Positions 5,315-44,710 of a DNA stretch of 48,088 nt are shown here, piece by piece. The notes below the pieces were generated by a model that saw nothing but the letters and a program-made list of their open reading frames with translations, had not been told where the DNA came from and did not search any database. The position numbers and the translations under genes are program-made. Position 1 is the first letter of the stretch. Every line of letters starts with the position of its first letter. The stretch comes from an uncultured Bacilli bacterium (GTDB lineage: Bacteria > Bacillota_I > Bacilli_A > RF39 > UBA660), in the NCBI GenBank assembly GCA_947629475.1, contig CANRDV010000003.1:1-48088 (forward strand), in the 5' to 3' direction.

Positions 5315-5935
5315 ATGGATGAAGAGAATAGTTTAATTAGTTTAATTAGTTTAATAGATGAAATATTTGATATCATTAAAACAGATTATTTAAAATATTT
5401 ATCCGATGATAAAAAAGACTTTTTAAAGAAACTTAATTATAAAAATCTTTTTACAATTAAAAATGATATTATTTATTATAAGACAGATTTAGTAACTTAT
5501 CCTTTAAAAAAAGAAGAGTTAACTATTGAAGTCTTAATATTCATGTGTCTTGCTCCTTTATGTGGAAATTTAACTCCCTTTAAAATATGTTTAATTGCAT
5601 CTGAAATAAAGTCATTGATTGAAAGGAATAATTTAGAAGGAAATAGAAACTTAGACTTTAATTTAATTGAAGTAATAAAAGAAAAAATATTAAATGATTT
5701 ACCATATAATATAATCTTTTTAGATACAGATATTGATATATTTAACTATTTAGCAACTGAAAAAGGTATTAGAACAGCTAAAATTTACTATTCATTAAAA
5801 CATGATTTTAACATCCATTTTCTAAAAGATGATTTTAATCCTTTAGAATATTTCTTAAAATACCAAGACTTAGAATATGAAACTAGTTATGATATAGTCT
5901 ATAACTTTATTGAAAATTCTATAATTTATAAATAA
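5315..5935 (+). CDS. Hypothetical protein
   Basis: 206-aa ORF with RBS GAGGG and upstream TGGTATATAAT. No family recognised. Confidence 0.6.
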   Translation: MDEENSLISLISLIDEIFDIIKTDYLKYLSDDKKDFLKKLNYKNLFTIKNDIIYYKTDLVTYPLKKEELTIEVLIFMCLAPLCGNLTPFKICLIASEIKSLIERNNLEGNRNLDFNLIEVIKEKILNDLPYNIIFLDTDIDIFNYLATEKGIRTAKIYYSLKHDFNIHFLKDDFNPLEYFLKYQDLEYETSYDIVYNFIENSIIYK

Positions 5936-5961
5936 ATTTAATTTTAAAATCATAGTATTAA

Positions 5962-6453
5962 TTGGTGATACTATTGAAAAAAATAAATGAAAATACTAAA
6001 AAGTTAATAATTGCTTTGATTATTCCTTTAGGAGTAGGGTTCTTATCATTTTTATTAACAAGGCAGGGAATAGCAAACTATTCAGAAAATCTGCTTAAAC
6101 CAACATTCGCTCCACCTAGTTTTCTCTTTGGAATAGTTTGGACAATTCTGTATATACTAATGGGAATATCAAGTTATATAATAAGTAAAGACATGTCAAG
6201 TCATAAGGATACTTGTTTATTAATCTATGGACTTAATTTAGTTTTAAACTTCCTATGGCCAATTATTTTCTTTAACTTTGAAGCCAGACTCTTTGCTTTT
6301 ATCTTTATTATTCTTTTAGATTTAGTAGTAATTTATATGATAATCTGTTTTCATGGAATATCGAAAACCGCAGCTTATTTACAAATACCATATCTTATAT
6401 GGCTAATATTTGCAACAATTTTAAACTTTAGTGTTTATTTTTTAAATCGATAA
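5962..6453 (+). CDS. tspO: TspO/MBR family tryptophan-rich sensory protein
   Basis: LxKPxFxPP...FGIVWTILYILMG...LNFLWPIIFF...IPYLIWLIFATILN, about five TM helices. Confidence 0.9.
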   Translation: MVILLKKINENTKKLIIALIIPLGVGFLSFLLTRQGIANYSENLLKPTFAPPSFLFGIVWTILYILMGISSYIISKDMSSHKDTCLLIYGLNLVLNFLWPIIFFNFEARLFAFIFIILLDLVVIYMIICFHGISKTAAYLQIPYLIWLIFATILNFSVYFLNR

Positions 6454-6471
6454 TTGTATAATATTAGGTAG

Positions 6472-7671
6472 GTGGGGCCTATGAATATAATTTTTCATAT
6501 TGATGTTAATAACGCATTCCTCTCTTGGAGTGCTGTTTATCTTTTAAAAAATGGATACAAAGAGGATATAAGAACTATCCCAAGTGTTGTAGCTGGAGAT
6601 GAAACCAAAAGACATGGGATTGTTTTAGCTAAAAGTGAAGTTGCTAAAAAGTATGGAATTAAAACAGCTGAAACGTTACATACTGCCAGGACTAAATGCA
6701 AAGAATTACAAATTTTTCCACCTAATTTTAATTTTTATAAAGAAATGTCTGATAAATTATATAATTACTATTTAACTTTTACTCCTGATGTTGAAAGGTT
6801 TTCAATTGATGAGTGTTTTCTTGATTTATCAAATACAACTCTTTTATATGATGATATTTTAGAACTTGCTTATAAAATGAAAAATGAAATTAAAGAAAAT
6901 TTTGGTTTTACTGTTAATATTGGAATAGGAAATAATAAACTATGCGCTAAAATGGCTGGAGATTTTTCAAAGCCTGATAAAGTTCATACCTTATTTTCTA
7001 ATGAAATTAAAATGAAACTTTGGCCTTTGCCAATTGAAGATTTGTTATTTATTGGAAAAAGTAGTAGTCAGGAATTAAGAAAATTAAATATAGAAACAAT
7101 AGGGGACCTTGCTAAAGCTAATCCTAATTTACTATATAAACACTTTAAAAATCGTAGTTCTTTTATGATTGAATATGCTAATGGCATAGATGATTCTAAA
7201 GTAATTAGTAAAAATGGTAAAAATAAATGTATTAGTTTTTCTGAAACTTTAGAGTTTGATACGAAAGATAAAGAATTTCTAAAACAAAAACTTATGATTA
7301 TGTGTGAAAAAATTGGTCTTAAATTAAGACGTGATAAACTTTATGCCAGAACAATTGCTATAACAATAAAGACTAATTATTTTAAAGATTATTCGCATCA
7401 AAAAAAGTTAGTAAATGAAACTAATAATACAATGGAACTTTATAAAAATGTTCTTGATATCTTAGATATAACTTTATCTGATAACTTAATTAGAAATATT
7501 GGAGTAAGAGTTTCAGATTTAGTTAAAACTAAGAATAGTCAAATTTCTTTATTTGATAAAATTCCTTCTCAAGAAGATGATAAAATTCAAGAAGTTTTAG
7601 ATGATATTAATTTAAAATATAATGATTTAAAGATAATGCCAGCTGTATTTTATCAAAAAGATAAAAAATAA
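6472..7671 (+). CDS. dinB: DNA polymerase IV (Y-family)
   Basis: HIDVNNAF, SIDE, GIGNNKLCAKMA, KPD and a little-finger C-terminus. Confidence 0.92.
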   Translation: MGPMNIIFHIDVNNAFLSWSAVYLLKNGYKEDIRTIPSVVAGDETKRHGIVLAKSEVAKKYGIKTAETLHTARTKCKELQIFPPNFNFYKEMSDKLYNYYLTFTPDVERFSIDECFLDLSNTTLLYDDILELAYKMKNEIKENFGFTVNIGIGNNKLCAKMAGDFSKPDKVHTLFSNEIKMKLWPLPIEDLLFIGKSSSQELRKLNIETIGDLAKANPNLLYKHFKNRSSFMIEYANGIDDSKVISKNGKNKCISFSETLEFDTKDKEFLKQKLMIMCEKIGLKLRRDKLYARTIAITIKTNYFKDYSHQKKLVNETNNTMELYKNVLDILDITLSDNLIRNIGVRVSDLVKTKNSQISLFDKIPSQEDDKIQEVLDDINLKYNDLKIMPAVFYQKDKK

Positions 7672-7897: not shown

Positions 7898-9073
7898 ATG
7901 ATAAAAACTAAAACTACTAAAAAGAAATTTAATAAATTTCCACTTATGAAAGATACTAGTTTTAAAGCCTTATTTGCGAACGAGAAAGAACTAGTACCTT
8001 TAACACTATTTTTATCTATTATTTTGGATATTGACTACGATAAACTTTTAGGGAATATTGAACTTGATAAAACTAAATATCCTAAAAGTGAACCAGACAA
8101 AAAAGCTGATGAAAGAGATGTTGTTGCAATAGTTAAATATCCTGAACCATTTAAGGTAATGATTGAAATTAATTACTATAAACCTTGGTTTAATAAGAAA
8201 AAACATTATTTACATGAAGATATAACAATGACTGTTAAAATTACTAGGGATAATTTTTATAAAGATGGTACAAATTATTATGGTTTACCAAAAGGGAAAA
8301 ACTATGATAGTTTATTACCTATAATTCTAATAGAATTATCACCATTTTTCATTAATCCTAATGTAAATAGGATTGTTGAAGAATTTGATATGCGAGATAG
8401 ATATGGATTTAAATTATTTAGTAATATTGAATTTACAAATATTAATAAAAATTTTAGTTTAAGAAACATTAATGTTGCATGGGTATCTAATATGTGGTAT
8501 AATGATAATATAAATGAAGAAGAATTATCTGAGTATGAAAAGAAAATTATACCAATGATAGCTTTACTTACTGCATCTAATATGAAAGATGTTGATAAAT
8601 GTCTAAAAAATATTAACACTTCTTCAGAAATTAAAAAAATTATAAGAAAGGAAATAAAAAAAATGGATACAAATAATTATGAATTTGGAATACCTTATGA
8701 CCCAGTTGAAGATTGGAGAAAAATTTTTCAAGGGGCTGTAAATATTTACAAAAAGGAATTAAAAAATTCTAAAAAAATAATAGAAGATTCTAAACAAGAA
8801 TTAAAGTCTTCCAAAGAAGAATTAAATGCTTCCAAGCAAGAATTAAAGTCTTCTAAAGAAGAATTAAATGCTTCCAAGCAAGAATTAAAGTCTTCTAAAG
8901 AAGAATTAAATGCTTTCAAGCAAGAAAAATTAGATATGATTAAAGAAATGCATGAGAAAGGTTTATCTTTAGAGTTTATTTCTGATATTACTAAACTTAG
9001 TATTGATGAAGTAGAAAAGATTATTAATAAATCTAAATCTAAAAATAAAAATGAATTTAAAGAAAAATTATAA
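7898..9073 (+). CDS. Rpn-family (PDDEXK_2 / recombination-promoting nuclease-like) protein
   Basis: KDTSFKALF, DERDVV and MIEIN nuclease-type motifs, then a coiled-coil repeat and C-terminal HTH (GLSLEFISDITKLSIDEVEKI). RBS GGAGG before ATG 7898. Confidence 0.7.
   Translation: MIKTKTTKKKFNKFPLMKDTSFKALFANEKELVPLTLFLSIILDIDYDKLLGNIELDKTKYPKSEPDKKADERDVVAIVKYPEPFKVMIEINYYKPWFNKKKHYLHEDITMTVKITRDNFYKDGTNYYGLPKGKNYDSLLPIILIELSPFFINPNVNRIVEEFDMRDRYGFKLFSNIEFTNINKNFSLRNINVAWVSNMWYNDNINEEELSEYEKKIIPMIALLTASNMKDVDKCLKNINTSSEIKKIIRKEIKKMDTNNYEFGIPYDPVEDWRKIFQGAVNIYKKELKNSKKIIEDSKQELKSSKEELNASKQELKSSKEELNASKQELKSSKEELNAFKQEKLDMIKEMHEKGLSLEFISDITKLSIDEVEKIINKSKSKNKNEFKEKL
8795..8926 (+). repeat. Coding tandem repeat, 3 x 42 bp (QELKSSKEELNASK)
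   Basis: Units start at 8795, 8837 and 8879. Each is two related 21-bp heptad-coding halves. Confidence 0.95.
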
Positions 9074-9086
9074 GAAAGGAATAAAA

Positions 9087-9389
9087 ATGGATACAAATAA
9101 TTATGAATTTGGAATACCTTATGACCCAGTTGAGGATTGGAGAAAAATTTTTCAAGGGGCTGTAAATATTTACAAAAAGGAATTAAAAAATTCTAAAAAA
9201 ATAATAGAAGATTCTAAACAAGAATTAATGTCTTCTAAAGAAGAATTAAATGCTTCCAAGCAAGAAAAATTAGATATGATTAACAATTTTTACAATCAAG
9301 GAATTTCGTTAAATGTAATTGCTAAAGCTTGTAATCTAAGTATTGAAGAGGTAGAAAAGATTGTTAATAAATCTAAATCTAAAAAATAA
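9087..9389 (+). CDS. Stand-alone Rpn C-terminal (RpnS-like) protein with variant HTH
   Basis: RBS AAGGA then ATG 9087 (MDTNNYEFGIPYDP...). Copy of the region starting at internal ATG 8663 of the upstream gene. Confidence 0.7.
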   Translation: MDTNNYEFGIPYDPVEDWRKIFQGAVNIYKKELKNSKKIIEDSKQELMSSKEELNASKQEKLDMINNFYNQGISLNVIAKACNLSIEEVEKIVNKSKSKK

Positions 9390-30020: not shown

Positions 30021-30044
30021 CATAGATTAAGTTTATGCTATTTT
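30014..30044. terminator. Bidirectional terminator between convergent genes
   Basis: AAAATAGCATAGA-ttaag-TTTATGCTATTTT. Confidence 0.7.
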
Positions 30045-31347
30045 AATATAAGTTTAAATTATCAATATATTCAATTAAGTAAAGAGGAATATTAACAATT
30101 TTACCATCTTTATGTAAATTATTTAAAGAAAATCTAAATGAAATTTCATTGTCATGATTAGAATTATATTTACTTAAACTATTATTATTAGTACTTTTAT
30201 TGGATTTTACTTCAATTGGAATAATTGTATTTTTTCTTTCAATTACAAAATCAACTATATATCTATCAATTTTATAATAATTAGGAGCTTCTTCTAACAT
30301 ATAACTTAAAGTATTAGCAACATAGTTTTCGGTGAATGTTCCTTTAAATTCTTCAAACAATTTATTATTTTCTAAAATAATACTACTATCTAAATTAGAC
30401 ATTCTTCTGAGAAGTCCAATATCATTCATATAAATTTTATAAGCATTTAAATCTTGATAACCTTTTAAAGGAAAGGAACATTTATTTACTAAATAACATT
30501 TGTTAATTAAATTTGCATCTTTTAGCCAATTAAGAGCACCTTCATATTCTCTAGCCCTTGCACCTTCTTTTATTACTTGATAAACAAACTTTTTATTTTC
30601 TCTTGCAAGTTCAGATGGTATTCCATTCCAAATTAAAGAAATTTTATTAGCTTCAGAACTTTCAACATGTTTAGAAAAATCACTTTCATAAGAGTCTAAT
30701 ATATTCTTTTGAATTTTATTAACCTTTGATATGTCTTTATCATTAGCCCAACTATAAACTACTTCGGGCATTCCTCCAACAATAAAATAAGTTTTTAATT
30801 TTTCAATCAACTCATCTTCAAAGATTTTAGGTATTTCTTTAATTTCTTTTAGTGATTTCATAAACTCAACCAGATTTTCTTTATTAATAGCAATCAAAAA
30901 TTCACTGAAAGTCATAGGATACATATAAAGAAAATCTACTTTGCCAACGGGAAATGAAGTTTTAGAAAGTTTTATTCCAAGAAGAGAACCAGCACAGGCA
31001 ATATGATAATCATTTGCTTCTTCACAAAAATATTTTAAAGAATTTAAAGCATTTGGACATTCTTGAATTTCATCAAAAATAATTAAAGTCGTAAGAGGAT
31101 TAATTTTCATTCCACTAGCTAAAGATAATTGTTCAATTAATCTTTTAGGGTCTTTAGTATTTAAAAATAAGTTTGCTAAACCATCATCATGGTCAAAATT
31201 AAAATAAGCAACATTTTCATAATTATTTTCACCAAATTCTTTTAAAATATATGTCTTTCCAACTTGTCTAGCACCTCTTAAAATTAAAGGTTTTCTGTCT
31301 TTACTTTCTTTCCATTCTAATAATTTTTCAGTTATAAATCTTTTCAT
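30043..31347 (-). CDS. AAA_14 ATPase with DUF4143 / C-terminal PD-(D/E)XK-like domain
   Basis: GARQVGKT, IIFDEIQ, AGSLLG, PMTFSEFL, GGMPE, DIGLL, ENYV, VDF...PIEVKS. Confidence 0.88.
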   Translation of the reverse strand: MKRFITEKLLEWKESKDRKPLILRGARQVGKTYILKEFGENNYENVAYFNFDHDDGLANLFLNTKDPKRLIEQLSLASGMKINPLTTLIIFDEIQECPNALNSLKYFCEEANDYHIACAGSLLGIKLSKTSFPVGKVDFLYMYPMTFSEFLIAINKENLVEFMKSLKEIKEIPKIFEDELIEKLKTYFIVGGMPEVVYSWANDKDISKVNKIQKNILDSYESDFSKHVESSEANKISLIWNGIPSELARENKKFVYQVIKEGARAREYEGALNWLKDANLINKCYLVNKCSFPLKGYQDLNAYKIYMNDIGLLRRMSNLDSSIILENNKLFEEFKGTFTENYVANTLSYMLEEAPNYYKIDRYIVDFVIERKNTIIPIEVKSNKSTNNNSLSKYNSNHDNEISFRFSLNNLHKDGKIVNIPLYLIEYIDNLNLY

Positions 31348-38536: not shown

Positions 38537-40069
38537 TTATTCTCTTTCTTTAACAATACTAGGTTTATATCTTTGATTACCATTAAAATAATTTAAATAA
38601 GTTTTTTCAGAATCTTCTAAATAAGGAGTTTTATCTTTACTAAGTTTAGGAAAAATATAACATAATTCATTATCAATAAATAATAAGTAATCACCTAAAT
38701 TAACTTTATCACTATTATCATACCAAACTAAAACTTTTTCTTTATTTCTTTCATAATGAATACTACTTACTTTTAAAAAGTAATTTAATTTACTTGTAAA
38801 GATATAAAATAAATACCAAACTACATAAACATTATTATCATTGATACTACCATGAGCTTCAACTTTATTCCTTAATAGTCTAATAAGTTTAAATAAACCT
38901 AAGAAACTAATAGAATCTCCTTCTAACTTAACCCCTAAAAAATTAGCCATATAATTTAAATAATTAGTTTCTTCATCAGTTAACTTTATAGTTTCAGTTT
39001 TAATATCATAAATTAAATCATCCTTTTTAACTAACTTATAAATATTTTTAGAAGTAATCGGAATAGAATCAATTGCTAATTCTCTTACAACTTCATTATT
39101 ATTATGGTACTTATTATATAAATAATAAAGAACCATTTTAGAAAGTGCAACTATATAATTTAATAAAATTAAAATACTTTGATAAGCTGAATCTGTTAAA
39201 TAAGCATTTTTATATAATTCTAATAAAAAATCATCATTAGGTAAATTAGAATGTTCTAACTTCATCTTTTCTTGAAAATAATATTTTGATTTACTTACTA
39301 AATCAGAATAATCTTCTCGAACATAATTTAATTTATCAATACTTAATAAATTTTCAATATATTCTAATAAGTTAATATCTTTAGAAATAACTCTTAATCC
39401 ATTTTTATAACTTAGTTTAGAATTATCACTTACAACTATAAAATAGATAACTTTATTTTTATATAATTCATAATCTTTTAGATTTTTACTTACAATAACA
39501 AGTGTATTTTTTAAGATTATATCTTTTTTACTTTGATATTTATTAAGTTCACTATCTTTTATATAAAAGTTCTTTTTATTAATACTATATTCTAAATTAT
39601 TATTTAAATCAAAGGTTGATGAAAGTAAATTATCTTTTATTAAAATATAATTAAATAAATTAGGATTTCTTTTAAACTTTATTATCTTTAAACTTTGATT
39701 ATCTTTTTTAGGTAATAAAAGATATAAGATATAGAAAATAATGATAATAAATAATTCTAAACTAAAGAAAATAATTGTATTATAAGTACTAATATATTTA
39801 TTTAAGAAAATATAGATTAAAAGAACTTTAATAATACCTAAAATAGGGTAAGTAATAATTAATTTAAAGTTATTATCCTTTTTAGAACCTAAAAGATAAA
39901 AAAAGTAAATGAGGTTAAATCCAAGAACAATGACAATAATTCTAATATATGATGAAAGTCTTGTAAAAATAGTTATCCCCATAATTGTGGATAAAAAATA
40001 ATTTAGGAATACAAACTCTAAGATTAAAGAAGTATATAAGATAATCTGATTAGTTTTCGTTAATTTCAT
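38537..40069 (-). CDS. Membrane protein (about 4 TM) with C-terminal HEPN-like motif
   Basis: Hydrophobic N-terminal ~120 aa. Helical C-terminal domain with LRNKVEAHG (38852-38872). Confidence 0.55.
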   Translation of the reverse strand: MKLTKTNQIILYTSLILEFVFLNYFLSTIMGITIFTRLSSYIRIIVIVLGFNLIYFFYLLGSKKDNNFKLIITYPILGIIKVLLIYIFLNKYISTYNTIIFFSLELFIIIIFYILYLLLPKKDNQSLKIIKFKRNPNLFNYILIKDNLLSSTFDLNNNLEYSINKKNFYIKDSELNKYQSKKDIILKNTLVIVSKNLKDYELYKNKVIYFIVVSDNSKLSYKNGLRVISKDINLLEYIENLLSIDKLNYVREDYSDLVSKSKYYFQEKMKLEHSNLPNDDFLLELYKNAYLTDSAYQSILILLNYIVALSKMVLYYLYNKYHNNNEVVRELAIDSIPITSKNIYKLVKKDDLIYDIKTETIKLTDEETNYLNYMANFLGVKLEGDSISFLGLFKLIRLLRNKVEAHGSINDNNVYVVWYLFYIFTSKLNYFLKVSSIHYERNKEKVLVWYDNSDKVNLGDYLLFIDNELCYIFPKLSKDKTPYLEDSEKTYLNYFNGNQRYKPSIVKERE

Positions 40070-41901
40070 TTTCTCACCTCATCTATTTTAATTTTATTAT
40101 CTCTAGATTTAACTAAGATATTTCCATTTTTATAATCTAAATATTCTAGTAATAAATCTTTATTTTCAAGTGCACCATAACTATATAAATAAGAATCATT
40201 TTTCTTTTCTTCTAAAGCTTTAAAACTAGTATTAAATAAACCTTGAATTAAATCATGTTCCTTGATAGTAATATTTAAACTTAAAAATGAAGTTATTATT
40301 TCTTTAGTAAGAGTAAATAAATCATCAACTAAATAGGTAGATACATCATAAGTTAAAACTCCATGAACTAAGATATTATTACGAACTTTGATTAAATAAG
40401 TACAAATATCTTGATAAAAGCAAACTGTTTTATCTTTAAACTTTCGCTCTTCTTTAAATAAATCATCAATATGGTTGAAAGCTTCAATTATTTCAGGATT
40501 ATCATACTTCTTATTTTTAGCATTCTTTATCTTTTGATAATTAATCCAAGTACCAAGAGTAGGTATCTTTAATTCTTCTTTAGCAACCTCAGACATATTA
40601 GTTAAATCTTTCTCAACAATATTCTTTAAAGCTCGATAATGAAGACAATATTCAAATAACTTTAAGATAGTATAAAAGTTTTCAATTTGATTTAAAGAAT
40701 TTTCAATTTGTTTTAATCCAAATATTATATATTTATTAGGTTTAATATCTTTAACTTCTTTTAATAGATTATCTACTTTTTCTTTTAAAATAATATTATC
40801 ATTATCATTAACTACTTCTTTTAAAACTTTAAGTTCTAATTTATTTTTAAAATGAAATTTATAAGTCTTTTGTATTTCTTTAGCAAACTTAGTATTACTT
40901 TTTGCTATTATTTTAAACTTATAATTTTTACTGATATCATTAATTTTCTTAAGTAAATAGACTTTAGAATATTTATCAAGAAAACTTAAGGAATAACTAT
41001 TTAGATTTATTAGATAGTAAATATTTTTATAACTATTTATATCTATTAAATTTAATCTAATCGCAGTGTAAGATACAATATTAAAACTTTTATTTTCTAT
41101 TACTAAGTTATTTAAAATATTATTAGATAATTTGTTAAATCCTTTAAATTCATTACTTAAACCTAGATTAAAGAAAGAGTTTTCTAAAGTTAAAACAACA
41201 AATAAATTTTTATTTGAATTATTATCTTTATTTATTTTCTTAACTGTAAGAATAGATATTACCATTTTTATTCCAAAATAGATTAAGTAAATAACTAAGA
41301 ATGATAGTAATAAGTATTGTATTTTTCTTGGATACATATAAAGACTAGGTACTTGAGACATTACAATTCCAAATAGAATTATAAAGATATAATGATATAT
41401 TCTTTTATAAAGAGATTCTAGGATATAAAAGAAAGTACCTTTTGGAGTCTTTTCAGTAAATAGAAAATATATAGGTATTAATAAAGTAAGAAAGGGGATA
41501 GTGCATACAATAATTAAAGTTATTCTTACATTAAAGTTTGGATAAAAAAATGGAACTGATAGAAAGTTATAAAAATTAAGAAATATATTTGAATCGTCCC
41601 ATTTAAGATAGTTAGTATTACTTGGAAATAAAGTTATAATTATTGGTAATATTAATAATAATATATAAAGAATACAACTAAATATTTTATGTTTTTTTAG
41701 AAATAGAAAGTTATTAAAGAAAAGAAATTGAGTTAAAACTAATAAAGAAATAAAGCAAGAAAAATAGATAAATGTTCCATCTAAAAATGGGAAATAGTAA
41801 AATCCATTTAAAGATATATTTAAACCTATTAAAAGAAATATTATTAATATAATAAGATAAGTTATTATTTTAAACGTTACTGTTTTCATATAGTCCCTCA
41901 T
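40066..41901 (-). CDS. Membrane protein (about 6 TM) with C-terminal HEPN-like motif
   Basis: Hydrophobic N-terminal ~220 aa. PTLGTW and VRNNILVHG (40363-40383). The start may be ATG 41889. Confidence 0.55.
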   Translation of the reverse strand: MRDYMKTVTFKIITYLIILIIFLLIGLNISLNGFYYFPFLDGTFIYFSCFISLLVLTQFLFFNNFLFLKKHKIFSCILYILLLILPIIITLFPSNTNYLKWDDSNIFLNFYNFLSVPFFYPNFNVRITLIIVCTIPFLTLLIPIYFLFTEKTPKGTFFYILESLYKRIYHYIFIILFGIVMSQVPSLYMYPRKIQYLLLSFLVIYLIYFGIKMVISILTVKKINKDNNSNKNLFVVLTLENSFFNLGLSNEFKGFNKLSNNILNNLVIENKSFNIVSYTAIRLNLIDINSYKNIYYLINLNSYSLSFLDKYSKVYLLKKINDISKNYKFKIIAKSNTKFAKEIQKTYKFHFKNKLELKVLKEVVNDNDNIILKEKVDNLLKEVKDIKPNKYIIFGLKQIENSLNQIENFYTILKLFEYCLHYRALKNIVEKDLTNMSEVAKEELKIPTLGTWINYQKIKNAKNKKYDNPEIIEAFNHIDDLFKEERKFKDKTVCFYQDICTYLIKVRNNILVHGVLTYDVSTYLVDDLFTLTKEIITSFLSLNITIKEHDLIQGLFNTSFKALEEKKNDSYLYSYGALENKDLLLEYLDYKNGNILVKSRDNKIKIDEVRK

Positions 41902-43003
41902 TTATTTGTAAATAAGTTAATTTATCTTTTTTAATATCTATATACTTAAGATAATATAGTTTATCATTAAGATAAGTTTTTACAACAAAAGTACCAAAGT
42001 CAATACTAGGTGCAACAACATATCTTTTACTTTTTAATATTGCAGAATAAATATTTGTTTCTTTATTAGTTGTAAAATCTATTTGATTAATTTCTATTTT
42101 TAAATCATTATCACTAGAATTTCTAACATATAAACTAGAACTTTGGGTATTATTTTGAAGAGTAATAGTCTTTTTAATTTTATAAGTTTTGTTATTATGT
42201 TCAAACGTTATTAAAAGATTAATATTAGTATTAGAAAATTCTTTAGTTTTATTTTCTTTTATGATAAATCCTTCTTCATTAGTAAAAATATTTTGTTTTT
42301 TATTTTTTAAGTTTAAAACTTCTTGATTAGTATTTAAAGTATTAAGAATTATTTCTATTTTTTTTATATAAGAATTAGTTATATTAAAGTTAAATTCTCG
42401 TTTTATTGTATTATTTTCTATAATATCATTTGTAGTTATAATAGATAATTTTTCTCCTTTAAAGTCATCTTTTATAAAAATTTGTTCATCTAAATTATAA
42501 GTAATTGAATCTTGAATTAATTTTTTTTCTTCACTTTCTAAAGTAATTCTACCTTGTTTATTGAAAGTTATATTATCTCCTTTTAAAGTAAAATTACAGA
42601 TATTTTCTTTTAAATTAATTTCTTTGCTTTTAGACATATCTTTTGTTTTAAAGTTATAGGTTTTAAGTTCTAAATCTGAAATACCAGTATAGCCTTCTTG
42701 ATTAGTTTTTAAAGTTATGTCATTATTAAAGGTATCATAGAAAGTTATTTCATAATCTTTAATTGGTTTATCATTATTATCTAAAACTTTGAATAAACAA
42801 TAATTATCAGTTTTAGAATCAGAAAATGGTTTACTATAAAATTGTTTTTCTTTATAATAATTAGTATAGTAATCAGTAAAACTTTTCATGAATAAATCAT
42901 TTTCTTTTAAATTAGTATAATCTATAGGTTTCTTAATTATTAAAATAGAACTTATTCCAAGTAAGATAATGATAATAATTGTTATTGATATTATTTTTTT
43001 CAT
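41870..43003 (-). CDS. Membrane-anchored surface protein with CnaB/SpaA (prealbumin-like) domain
   Basis: N-terminal anchor, FKVLDNNDKPIKDYEITFYD...LKTNQEG...ISDL...Y.F, C-terminal FGTFVVK beta-sandwich. Confidence 0.55.
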   Translation of the reverse strand: MKKIISITIIIIILLGISSILIIKKPIDYTNLKENDLFMKSFTDYYTNYYKEKQFYSKPFSDSKTDNYCLFKVLDNNDKPIKDYEITFYDTFNNDITLKTNQEGYTGISDLELKTYNFKTKDMSKSKEINLKENICNFTLKGDNITFNKQGRITLESEEKKLIQDSITYNLDEQIFIKDDFKGEKLSIITTNDIIENNTIKREFNFNITNSYIKKIEIILNTLNTNQEVLNLKNKKQNIFTNEEGFIIKENKTKEFSNTNINLLITFEHNNKTYKIKKTITLQNNTQSSSLYVRNSSDNDLKIEINQIDFTTNKETNIYSAILKSKRYVVAPSIDFGTFVVKTYLNDKLYYLKYIDIKKDKLTYLQINEGLYENSNV

Positions 43004-43011
43004 ACTCCTCC

Positions 43012-43989
43012 TTAATGAATATTTATTGTAGCTGTAATAGAATCGTTATAAAGTGTATATATTCTGGCAGCATAGTCTTCGTTGTTGGAAAGATAAGCAT
43101 TTGCTTTTAAATCATAGTAAGAAACATCAAGGGTATAATCAAAATGCTTAGTCTCTTTAGAAAAAGCTATGTAAAAGTTTTTCTTGTGTAAGTTTGCTAA
43201 ATTAGTAACTTTTTCTCCTTTATCATTATAAATATCTATTTTAACGTCGCCATTTTCACCTTTAGCAGTTATTTTAGCATCTTTAACAATACCATTTTTA
43301 ACATTATAGGTAACTGGACCTACTAAATATTTAAGGTCGGCACTTTGTAAATCAGCAGAGTAGTTTTTAGTAGTTAATGTTAAGACATTGGTAACTTCTT
43401 GATAATTACGATTTTTATTCCAATTATCAACATATTCAACGAGTTTAGAAGCCGAATTGTAGACTCTTTCATTTATTCTAGTCTCTCCAACATAACTTCT
43501 AATACCATTTATTCTAGCAGTTGTTGAGGAATAGATTGCTTCTCTTGTTCTACTAGCCATTTCCCATAAAGCAAGTTGAATAGCAAAATAAGCTTCATCT
43601 TCATTTATAACATTCATTTCTTCTAAAGAAACTAGGGGATAACTATTTCTAAATATAAGATAGATTTGGTCACTTAATGGACCTTTATATTTTAAAACAT
43701 CACCAACTTTTAAATTACTGTGACCCATTGATAAACTAAAAATATCCATGTTTTGGCTATTTCCATAGTAATGCTTATTTAAAGGGTCAAATTTAAATTT
43801 TGTATTAAAAGTTGAGACTTTATTAATTATTATATCATCTTCTTCAAAACCAGTATATAAATTAACTTCATCACCTAAATCTTTAACAAAGACTGAATCA
43901 TTTTTTTCTTCAATTTGTAATGTTACAAAAATTGTTAAGATAATTATTTCTAAAGTTATTAACATTAAATATTTTGAATATTTTTTCAC
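43012..43989 (-). CDS. Membrane-anchored thioester-domain (TED)-like protein without cysteine
   Basis: IFRNSYP.VSLEE...EAYFAIQLALWE matches the TED GYP...TQxAxW core. The protein contains no Cys. Confidence 0.6.
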   Translation of the reverse strand: MKKYSKYLMLITLEIIILTIFVTLQIEEKNDSVFVKDLGDEVNLYTGFEEDDIIINKVSTFNTKFKFDPLNKHYYGNSQNMDIFSLSMGHSNLKVGDVLKYKGPLSDQIYLIFRNSYPLVSLEEMNVINEDEAYFAIQLALWEMASRTREAIYSSTTARINGIRSYVGETRINERVYNSASKLVEYVDNWNKNRNYQEVTNVLTLTTKNYSADLQSADLKYLVGPVTYNVKNGIVKDAKITAKGENGDVKIDIYNDKGEKVTNLANLHKKNFYIAFSKETKHFDYTLDVSYYDLKANAYLSNNEDYAARIYTLYNDSITATINIH

Positions 43990-44657
43990 TCTAGTACCCC
44001 CTCTTCATTTAAATGAAGTTTAATTCCAATTACTTTATCTTGTTCAATTTTAACAAAAAACTTTTTAGGGTTATCTATTCCATCTTGAACTATATAACAA
44101 AGGTCTGCTGTTATGTGTTCAAAGGCAATCATTCCTTTTTCATTAGTTTTAGAACTTAAAAAGACTCTGCCCCAACTATCAAGTACGTTAATTTTAATAT
44201 CAGGAATAGGATTATCATTTTTATCAAGTACAAGAACAACAAAAGCACGTTCATTCATTGAAGTTGGAGAAAAATGATAACTTTTATTATTTTCTGAGAA
44301 TTTTAAATAATATTCGTTTGTATCTAATCCACTATAACTATGATTACTTACTTCTTTTAAAGTATATTCTCCATTTTTAAGTCCAACTAATCCTCCAACT
44401 CCCTCTTTATTTAAACTGAAATTATAACTTTTCTTTGTTTTTATATTAGTTAATTTCCAATCAGAATAATCTTTATCATCACGAAAGTATCTACTAATGT
44501 ATAAATAGTTTTCAGTTGTACCAACTATATTACATTGTTCTTCATTATAAGTTTTTCTAACTTCGTTTAAGGCTTTTTCATATTGTAAATTTTGATAACT
44601 TAGTAAGATAAAAACTCCTAAAATTATAATGATTAAAATAAAAATAAATTTTTTCAC
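43986..44657 (-). CDS. Membrane-anchored protein with two CnaB/SpaA-like beta-sandwich domains
   Basis: GTG start with RBS GGAGGA. LNKEG...GLKNGEYTLKEV and VLDKNDNPIPDIKINVLD...KTNEKG...FEHI. Confidence 0.6.
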   Translation of the reverse strand: MKKFIFILIIIILGVFILLSYQNLQYEKALNEVRKTYNEEQCNIVGTTENYLYISRYFRDDKDYSDWKLTNIKTKKSYNFSLNKEGVGGLVGLKNGEYTLKEVSNHSYSGLDTNEYYLKFSENNKSYHFSPTSMNERAFVVLVLDKNDNPIPDIKINVLDSWGRVFLSSKTNEKGMIAFEHITADLCYIVQDGIDNPKKFFVKIEQDKVIGIKLHLNEEGVLE

Positions 44658-44681: not shown

Positions 44682-44710
44682 ATTTTAGTATAAATAGATT
44701 AAATTGTCAA
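44682..44710 (-). promoter_or_regulatory. Sigma-A promoter of the five-gene operon
   Basis: Minus strand TTGACA (44710-44705), 17 bp, TAAAAT (44687-44682). Confidence 0.7.

Follow-up and report, generated by a model that had tools for sequence, protein, structure and literature searches.

What remains of a thioester domain (TED) when both residues that form its covalent bond have been replaced? The question is raised by a gene in a 48,088-nucleotide stretch of DNA (hereafter the window; contig CANRDV010000003.1 of GenBank assembly GCA_947629475.1, positions 1 to 48,088 of the forward strand) from an uncultured Bacilli bacterium of the RF39 lineage. The gene, at positions 43,012 to 43,989 on the reverse strand, encodes a protein that we call P0001. 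An initial annotation, made from the sequence alone, had described it as a TED with no cysteine, in which Ser and Glu stand where the thioester Cys and Gln are expected, and had offered two readings: a variant that binds non-covalently or one that closes a Ser-Glu oxyester. We find that the protein is modelled as a complete class II TED, that relatives mostly keep a Ser at the Cys position while the Gln position drifts, and that the gene belongs to a cassette of five genes that recurs as a unit. P0001 is likely a functional protein that has neither the thioester nor a cross-link in its stead, and it probably binds non-covalently; the first of the two readings stands, and the second fails for the reasons given below.

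The modelled fold of P0001

The 325-amino-acid translation contains no cysteine, and it matches the Pfam TED profile PF08341 at 30.6 bits (cut-off, 22) over profile positions 26 to 75 of 102 only, with the profile segment that would hold the Cys left unmatched. The match to TIGR03934 (TQXA_dom), at 25.3 bits, fell under the cut-off of 30.4. A sequence search of the PDB with P0001 returned only the class II TED entries 6fwy and 6fwv (E values of 8e-6 and 2e-5), and a profile of its family (alignment A1, below) matched 6fwv_A at an E value of 3.1e-27. The AlphaFold2 model, built with 36 homologues, has a mean pLDDT of 90.0 and a pTM of 0.82, and the top Foldseek matches to it were four chains of 6fwy and 6fwv (E values of 4.5e-13 to 2.2e-12). 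Structure comparison with VIA-align gave a Z score of 18.0 against the Bacillus anthracis TIE protein (6fwv_B; 243 residues aligned, rmsd 4.2) and of 16.6 against the Enterococcus faecium TIE86 TED (6fwy_A; 251 residues aligned, rmsd 5.9), matches that extend from model residue 47 or 51 to residue 325. The score against 6fx6 was 9.3, and the next tiers were class I TEDs at 9 to 11 and unrelated beta-sandwiches at 7 or below. The seven-stranded beta-sandwich inserted into class II TEDs and the slipknot-like hairpin of strands P and Q are both present in the model, which indicates that the ectodomain of P0001 is a complete class II TED fold. These results bear out the initial description of a Cys-free TED with NSYP and IQLALW motifs.

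Among the marks of a class II TED, P0001 has the fold, a Pfam score above the cut-off, and the TQXX-Phi-W motif, which reads A-I-Q-L-A-L-W with Ile in place of Thr and with Q138 and W142 present; it lacks the Cys and Gln that form the bond. Other descriptions fit it less well. The layout of a TIE adhesin, with signal peptide, TED, CnaB/SpaA stalk and LPXTG signal in one chain, is absent, since P0001 ends with the TED and the SpaA-like domain is encoded by a separate upstream gene. Neither is it an autocatalytic Thr-Gln ester-bond domain: there is no facing Gln in P0001 or its clade, and VIA-align places the fold with TEDs and not with Ig-like ester domains. At the N terminus, the Kyte-Doolittle profile peaks at 2.41 over residues 8 to 26, within a modelled helix of residues 2 to 30, and a motif and hydropathy scan found no LPXTG-like motif or C-terminal anchor. 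P0001 would therefore be exported and held on the external side of the membrane by its N-terminal helix.

Assignment of the two bond-forming positions

According to Walden 2015 and Miller 2018 (PMC6194298), no TED residues other than the Cys and Gln are fully conserved. As described in Miller 2018 (PMC6194298), the Cys lies within a [YFL]C-Phi-zeta motif, the Gln is delivered by the P/Q hairpin, which inserts into the head lobe, and TQXX-Phi-W is a third motif, dispensable for the bond, whose helix Q and W keep the backbone of the Cys in place in true TEDs. The corresponding segments of P0001 read DIFSLSMG (residues 82 to 89), FRNSYPLVS (113 to 121), FAIQLALWE (135 to 143) and SNNEDYAAR (301 to 309). 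The Gln of IQLALW was considered as the thioester Gln and rejected, TQXX-Phi-W being non-bonding in the same account (Miller 2018, PMC6194298).

Ser85 falls in the Cys column of canonical relatives in three alignments. In the MAFFT alignment A1 it shares its site with the YCI of P0039; among the 59 rows of an L-INS-i alignment, P0039, P0042, P0046, P0050, P0068, P0069 and a paralogue from the same genome (own_L003) carry C in its column; and when the A1 profile is aligned with 6fwv_A, the family's Y-s-l stands opposite Y-C-L, in which chain position 40 corresponds to the Cys71 named in Miller 2018 (PMC6194298). Glu304 shares its column with the Gln of six of the seven canonical rows in the L-INS-i alignment (QDY, QNY or QS), own_L003 being out of register. 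The model has a hairpin (residues 282 to 301 and 304 to 323) whose second strand begins with Glu304, and this placement at the hairpin tip agrees with where Miller 2018 (PMC6194298) puts the Gln. The two sites are 219 residues apart in P0001, a spacing that fits class II when set beside the 195, 204 and 171 residues of the solved pairs Cys71-Gln266, Cys88-Gln292 and Cys296-Gln467 given in Miller 2018 (PMC6194298). The AGT codon of Ser85 and the GAA codon of Glu304 lie where the initial annotation had put them (Table 1), the alignments confirm its assignment of both residues to the thioester positions, and the QDY that it gave for related class II TEDs is indeed found in canonical relatives.

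Conservation in the family and in the cassette

Searched exhaustively with HMMER, a set of 1.84 billion representatives yielded 48 proteins at E values of 1e-3 or below, 29 of them at 1e-10 or below. Alignment A1 comprises P0001 and 35 of these (36 rows); the other 13 are fragments or long proteins that match in part, 10 of which were looked at separately. Full-length open frames, of 318 to 343 amino acids, are found in the majority of the 48 representative clusters. The Cys site is occupied, over the 36 rows, by 24 Ser, 3 Thr (P0013, P0015 and P0020), 2 Lys, 2 Leu, and one each of Glu, Pro, Phe, Arg and Cys. Replacement by Phe, Lys, Arg, Leu, Pro or Glu, seen in 8 of the 36, argues against a reactive nucleophile. 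The Gln site holds 13 different residues (5 Ser, 5 Tyr, 5 Gln, 4 Asn, 3 Thr, 3 Lys, 2 Glu, 2 Asp, 2 Arg, 2 His, and one each of Cys, Ala and Leu), and even in the closest orthologue, which is 67% identical, SSDYA stands opposite the NEDYA of the window.

The same contrast appears among the eight cassette genes (that of the window and those of seven related loci). The residues at their Gln site are E, S, T, K, F, D, R and D, whereas their Cys site is Ser in all eight, encoded by AGT or AGC in five and by TCT in three. Passing between these codon families takes two nucleotide changes, by way of Thr or Cys, so that Ser, or a small hydroxyl residue, is under selection and Glu is not. The eight orthologues share 32 invariant columns. 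Across A1 the framework around the sites is well kept (Q138 in 34 of 36 rows, A140 in 35, W142 in 30, Y117 in 34, P118 in 35), as are the two residues that follow the lost Gln (D305 in 26, Y306 in 30).

These counts divide the argument of the initial annotation that paired conservative changes point to selection rather than decay. Selection on the gene holds, given intact orthologues in all seven related cassettes; selection on the pair does not, because Glu is not conserved. The annotation had itself proposed conservation among orthologues as a check and had named free variation as the outcome that would count against it. Glu does vary freely, being found in 2 of 36 rows and in a single cassette gene, which by that measure also counts against a Ser-Glu pair. 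Ser is conserved, with a hydroxyl residue in most rows and in every cassette gene, but gives way to the six other residue types in 8 of 36 rows.

Relatives with Cys and Gln, Ser and Gln, or Ser alone

A quick IQ-TREE search was run on 59 rows (58 of them different) and 276 columns with the two sites removed, using SH-aLRT support only and taking two LPXTG proteins that have both Cys and Gln as the root. The base of the tree is formed by canonical Cys+Gln rows; own_L003 was put in this class by eye, its Gln being two residues out of register. A sister clade of 16 rows (support, 93) comprises 11 Ser+Gln, 3 Cys+Gln and 2 Ser+other rows. No row in a clade of 39 (support, 83) has Gln at the site, and nested within it a clade of 35 rows (support, 99) contains P0001 and all cassette orthologues. 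In this last clade the Cys site has 24 Ser, 3 Thr and 8 non-hydroxyl residues, some of them bulky or charged, and the Gln site has Glu in 2 rows and Gln in none. The distribution suggests a graded series from Cys+Gln in LPXTG adhesins through Ser+Gln in short N-anchored proteins to Ser with almost any residue in the cassette, with the order of events left unproven by the weak root and forks.

The sister-clade proteins P0027, P0029, P0033, P0037, P0044 and P0053 to P0058 are 390 to 445 amino acids long and consist of a TED and one SpaA domain behind an N-terminal membrane helix, without LPXTG and with Ser at the Cys site; their motifs read AYS[ILV]DY followed by QD[YF] or QHY. They resemble P0001 in their N-terminal anchor, the absence of LPXTG, and the Ser, and differ in keeping the Gln (14 of 16 rows) and in carrying SpaA in the same chain. 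Metagenomic relatives, of which we examined 11 of the 18 returned loci (the other 7 were short or weak matches), follow the same division, with AYCIDY...QDY in long LPXTG proteins and AYSIDY...QDY or AYSITY...KKQY in short N-anchored ones. No gene of the 611- or 510-amino-acid cassette types stood beside Ser+Gln clade genes in these 11 loci. The Ser+Gln clade offers better candidates for a natural Ser-Gln oxyester than P0001 does, and the P0001 lineage may be a later derivative that has lost such a bond. A non-exhaustive literature search, in which the alignments in the supplement of Walden 2015 were left aside, turned up no account of bacterial TEDs that are naturally Cys-less or of the Ser type.

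Two arrangements were seen in passing among these loci. L017 has two Ser+Gln TED genes in tandem (positions 5656 to 6948 and 8001 to 9332), and in L021, L023, L024 and L025 a long LPXTG adhesin with AYCIDY...QDY is directly followed by a shorter N-anchored Ser-type TED gene, a recurrent pairing.

Comparison with known TED proteins

The class II TEDs of BaTIE (6FWV), EfmTIE86-TED (6FWY) and SaTIE-TED (6FX6), described in Miller 2018 (PMC6194298), share their fold with P0001 over the whole ectodomain at only 16 to 19% identity. They also share the helix with a TQXX-Phi-W-type motif and a Gln site that starts the last strand of a long hairpin. P0001 differs in having Ser for Cys, Glu for Gln, and no Cys anywhere. 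Unlike TIE adhesins, it has no isopeptide/CnaB stalk in its chain and no LPXTG, and an N-terminal hydrophobic helix serves as the putative anchor.

A parallel in genetic setting is TIEpLS20 (p34), the class II TED adhesin of pLS20, which according to Gago-Cordoba 2021 (PMC8092201) is needed for conjugation in liquid and whose C68S variant did not restore conjugation. As described there, TIEpLS20 resembles P0001 as a class II TED without sortase anchoring whose gene shares an operon with membrane machinery; it differs in retaining Cys68 and Gln256 and in having Cna domains and a signal peptide that is cleaved off (Gago-Cordoba 2021, PMC8092201).

The 1.72-Mb genome of the window (G000) has five other TED frames, of 630 to 1,431 amino acids (L001 to L004 and L006, on contigs C5, C7, C16 and C21). 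They belong to the same Pfam family, and L003 has class II-like spacing from its YC motif to Gln; their profile matches begin at positions 1 to 3 and include Y-C-[IVA] in long multidomain proteins, whereas the match of P0001 begins at position 25 or 26. Five canonical Y-C TED proteins make up a large putative set of covalent adhesins for a genome of this size.

Among eukaryotic thioester proteins, some, such as complement C5, have lost the Cys/Gln pair and yet are functional binders. The parallel with P0001 lies in the loss of the reactive pair; fold and lineage are unrelated.

Functional interpretation and alternatives

Because P0001 has no Cys, a Cys-Gln thioester is impossible, and free drift at the Gln site within the clade means that there is no conserved cross-link to replace it. 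From the retention of the fold together with Q138, W142, NSYP and D305-Y306, we infer that the domain has been kept for binding without a covalent bond or for scaffolding. The TED would bind a ligand or partner through the surface that rings the thioester pore in true TEDs, and Ser85 has probably been retained as the closest-shaped stand-in for a buried Cys, its backbone held by Q138 and W142. P0001 would act as one of three N-anchored Ig/TED-type ectodomain proteins that are co-transcribed with two polytopic membrane proteins, possibly in a complex with them, so that the cassette would resemble a TIE adhesin whose parts have been split up, given an anchor each and linked to partners in the membrane.

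The Ser-Glu oxyester, in which Ser85 and Glu304 would join within the molecule with loss of water and so keep a reactive or stabilizing cross-link, is highly improbable, even though both residues occupy bond-forming positions, a single nucleotide separates each codon from the canonical one (AGT versus TGT and GAA versus CAA), and the pocket motifs around them are kept. Against it, Glu is confined to the few genes noted above, the 67%-identical orthologue having Ser there; the Ser site, moreover, accepts Phe, Lys, Arg, Leu, Pro and Glu. In the autocatalytic Thr-Gln esters of adhesins of this sort, the acyl group reportedly comes from Gln and ammonia is lost, and we know of no case of direct carboxylate esterification in these domains. 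The loss of activity in the C68S variant of TIEpLS20, as presented in Gago-Cordoba 2021 (PMC8092201), also speaks against it. That Ser85 has some other chemistry, as a nucleophile that takes an acyl group from, or forms an ester with, an external ligand or partner protein, or as a site of modification, is unlikely. Its invariance in the eight cassette genes through both codon families would favor such a role, as would conservation of the helix positions that in true TEDs support the backbone of the Cys (Miller 2018, PMC6194298); on the other hand, 8 of 35 clade rows have non-hydroxyl residues, bulky and charged ones included, and there is no conserved catalytic partner at the facing position.

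In favor of a decaying, functionless relic of a canonical TED adhesin, both defining residues are lost, stalk and sortase signal are missing, and the Gln site is drifting. We nevertheless give this explanation very little credence, since most of the 48 clusters have full-length frames, the gene keeps its cassette position in all seven related loci down to ~30% identity, the eight cassette orthologues share their 32 invariant columns, the model of P0001 is confident, and the gene is translationally coupled to the one upstream.

Several points weigh against a functional, non-covalent P0001 or against the steps that lead to it. The MAFFT alignment A5, in which P0001 is the sole member of its subfamily, moved the Cys site by two columns, to Ser87; we treat this shift as an artefact because Y-S-L-S-Y, Y-S-I-D-Y and Y-C-I-D-Y line up in the other three alignments. 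The profile alignment with 6fwv puts Gln266 one column before Glu304, beside a two-residue insertion, and is thus ambiguous by one position, and the nearness of Ser85 and Glu304 in the model is taken from homology. Ser is invariant in the eight cassette genes, which is firmer conservation than a purely structural site needs, and it may have a specific role. Export and topology are deduced solely from the hydropathy scan and the modelled helix, many deep forks of the quickly searched tree have SH-aLRT values below 95, and non-covalent binding, the ligand and contacts with neighbouring proteins are matters that we only infer.

The whole clade, 35 of the 59 tree rows, keeps the class II fold with neither bonding residue, which suggests that the fold has a use apart from covalent capture. 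For such proteins, the label "thioester domain" given from a Pfam match alone overstates covalent adhesion. The Cys+Gln, Ser+Gln and Ser+anything proteins form a natural set for asking what each residue contributes, and the Ser+Gln members are the place to look for an oxyester TED.

The five-gene cassette

The gene for P0001 is the second of five genes for membrane and ectodomain proteins that abut or overlap (Table 1). Its GTG start shares the tetranucleotide GTGA with the stop codon of the upstream gene, with the ribosome-binding site GAGGGGG 9 nucleotides upstream, and the first gene has GGAGG 6 nucleotides before its own GTG. The site listed in Table 1 upstream of the first gene matches 11 of 12 positions of a sigma-70-like promoter and is the best of the region; promoter-like sites in the region as a whole do not exceed chance (56, against 59.6 in shuffled sequences), and no terminator-like site was found in the cassette region.

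Table 1. Positions of the P0001 gene, its sequence elements, and the genes of the cassette
Feature	Position	Strand	Basis or description
Cassette, five genes	38537..44657	-	membrane and ectodomain proteins, abutting or overlapping
Sigma-70-like site, just upstream of gene 1	44682..44710	-	TTGACA-17-TAAAAT
Gene 1, 223 aa	43986..44657	-	N-terminal membrane helix, SpaA/prealbumin-like domain; Pfam SpaA, 28.3 bits (cut-off, 23.1)
Gene 2, P0001 (TED protein)	43012..43989	-	325 codons, GTG start; Pfam TED match
Gene 3, 377 aa	41870..43003	-	N-terminal membrane helix; no family above threshold
Gene 4, 611 aa	40066..41901	-	polytopic in its N-terminal third; invariant R507-N508-x4-H513-G514 in the C-terminal domain
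Gene 5, 510 aa	38537..40069	-	four or five N-terminal membrane helices; C-terminal invariant R400-N401-K402-x-E404-A405-H406-G407
Within P0001: N-terminal hydrophobic helix, residues 8-26	43912..43968	-	putative membrane anchor or uncleaved signal; hydropathy and model
Ectodomain, residues 51-325	43015..43839	-	head lobe, inserted beta-sandwich, P/Q hairpin; AlphaFold2 model and structure comparison
Ser85 codon (AGT)	43735..43737	-	thioester Cys position; [YFL]C-Phi-zeta becomes F-S-L-S; alignments
NSYP, residues 115-118	43636..43647	-	translation; Y117 and P118 kept in family
IQLALW, residues 137-142	43564..43581	-	TQXX-Phi-W helix motif, non-bonding; translation; Q138 and W142 kept in family
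Long beta-hairpin, residues 282-301/304-323	43021..43146	-	strands P and Q, Glu304 at tip; model, topology as described in Miller 2018
Glu304 codon (GAA)	43078..43080	-	thioester Gln position; Phi-Q-zeta-Phi-Phi becomes N-E-D-Y-A; first residue of strand 304-323; alignments
Sixth gene in related loci, ~630-708 aa	L007:12454-14580		after the 510-aa gene
	L009:12597-14720		
	L012:12846-14786		
	L013:7876-9768		

Related loci were sought in species-representative genomes with a closer alignment (A2). In all seven that were found, from uncultured Bacilli and Clostridia, the five genes are intact and in the same order, down to ~30% identity. Of 151 genomes sampled across the order, that of the window alone was found to have the 510-amino-acid family, and none of 3 genomes of the same genus has it. 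In the same-genus genome G105, the Mbeg1-like and CmpB-like genes that flank the cassette are ~120 bp apart, which indicates that the cassette was inserted between them; its G+C content is 0.195 to 0.227, compared with ~0.25 around it. The cassette is accessory and was apparently acquired horizontally. A tblastn search of plasmid and phage collections with P0001 gave no match, family scans found no conjugation genes nearby, and a search for repeats flanking the cassette gave no convincing ones, only AT-rich chance matches. Its rarity and its content of unannotated membrane proteins make it a candidate for a new envelope system of uncultured gut Firmicutes.

In four of the seven related loci, a sixth gene follows the 510-amino-acid gene (Table 1). 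Its product, which begins MRTFELYLDESGEF in L007, has TPR repeats and, in two of the four, sub-threshold matches to DUF3800. The cassette of the window has no counterpart, and a search of its own genome, which is 93% complete, with the sixth-gene protein P0052 did not find one. In L011 the cassette is followed by a gene for a transglutaminase-core-like membrane protein (L011:10325-11233) and by a second Ser-type gene with TED and SpaA (L011:11269-12639), whose Cys and Gln sites read AYSLTY and KKKY.

The two polytopic neighbours

The 611- and 510-amino-acid proteins match no Pfam, NCBIfam or PADLOC family, and a profile search of the PDB found nothing. Their helical C-terminal domains each contain an RNxxxxHG motif that is invariant among aligned orthologues (8 of 8 and 6 of 6). 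HEPN RNases have an Rx4-6H motif in an all-helical domain. When the two families were compared with hhalign, the motifs were colinear, at an E value of 0.043 and a probability of 1.2%. The AlphaFold2 model of the 510-amino-acid protein has a pLDDT of 66; the best Foldseek matches to this low-confidence model were Csm6 chains (E values of 0.02 to 0.2), and VIA-align found no match to its C-terminal part. In the ESM Atlas, the C terminus of the 510-amino-acid protein matched unnamed clusters only, apart from a lead to the RnlA toxin (0.78) that was too weak to use, and the C terminus of the 611-amino-acid protein gave no usable match. The HEPN reading of these proteins was not confirmed: the resemblance is one of motif, with no family or fold match.

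A speculative reading, which we consider rather unlikely, is that the cassette is a surface-sensing defence or suicide system that spans the envelope, with the TED as ligand-binding head and the polytopic pair providing a HEPN-like cytoplasmic output. In such a system the three anchored Ig/TED-type proteins would report a surface event to the two polytopic proteins, joined in several relatives by the DUF3800-like/TPR sixth gene.

Two other genes within 15 kb of the cassette were noted. One, on the forward strand (positions 46717 to 47250), encodes a SieB-like superinfection-exclusion protein (PF14163; E value of 1e-27), and the other, on the reverse strand (positions 30043 to 31347), encodes an AAA_14/DUF4143 ATPase; a DUF4143 ATPase gene is also found upstream of the cassette in L009.

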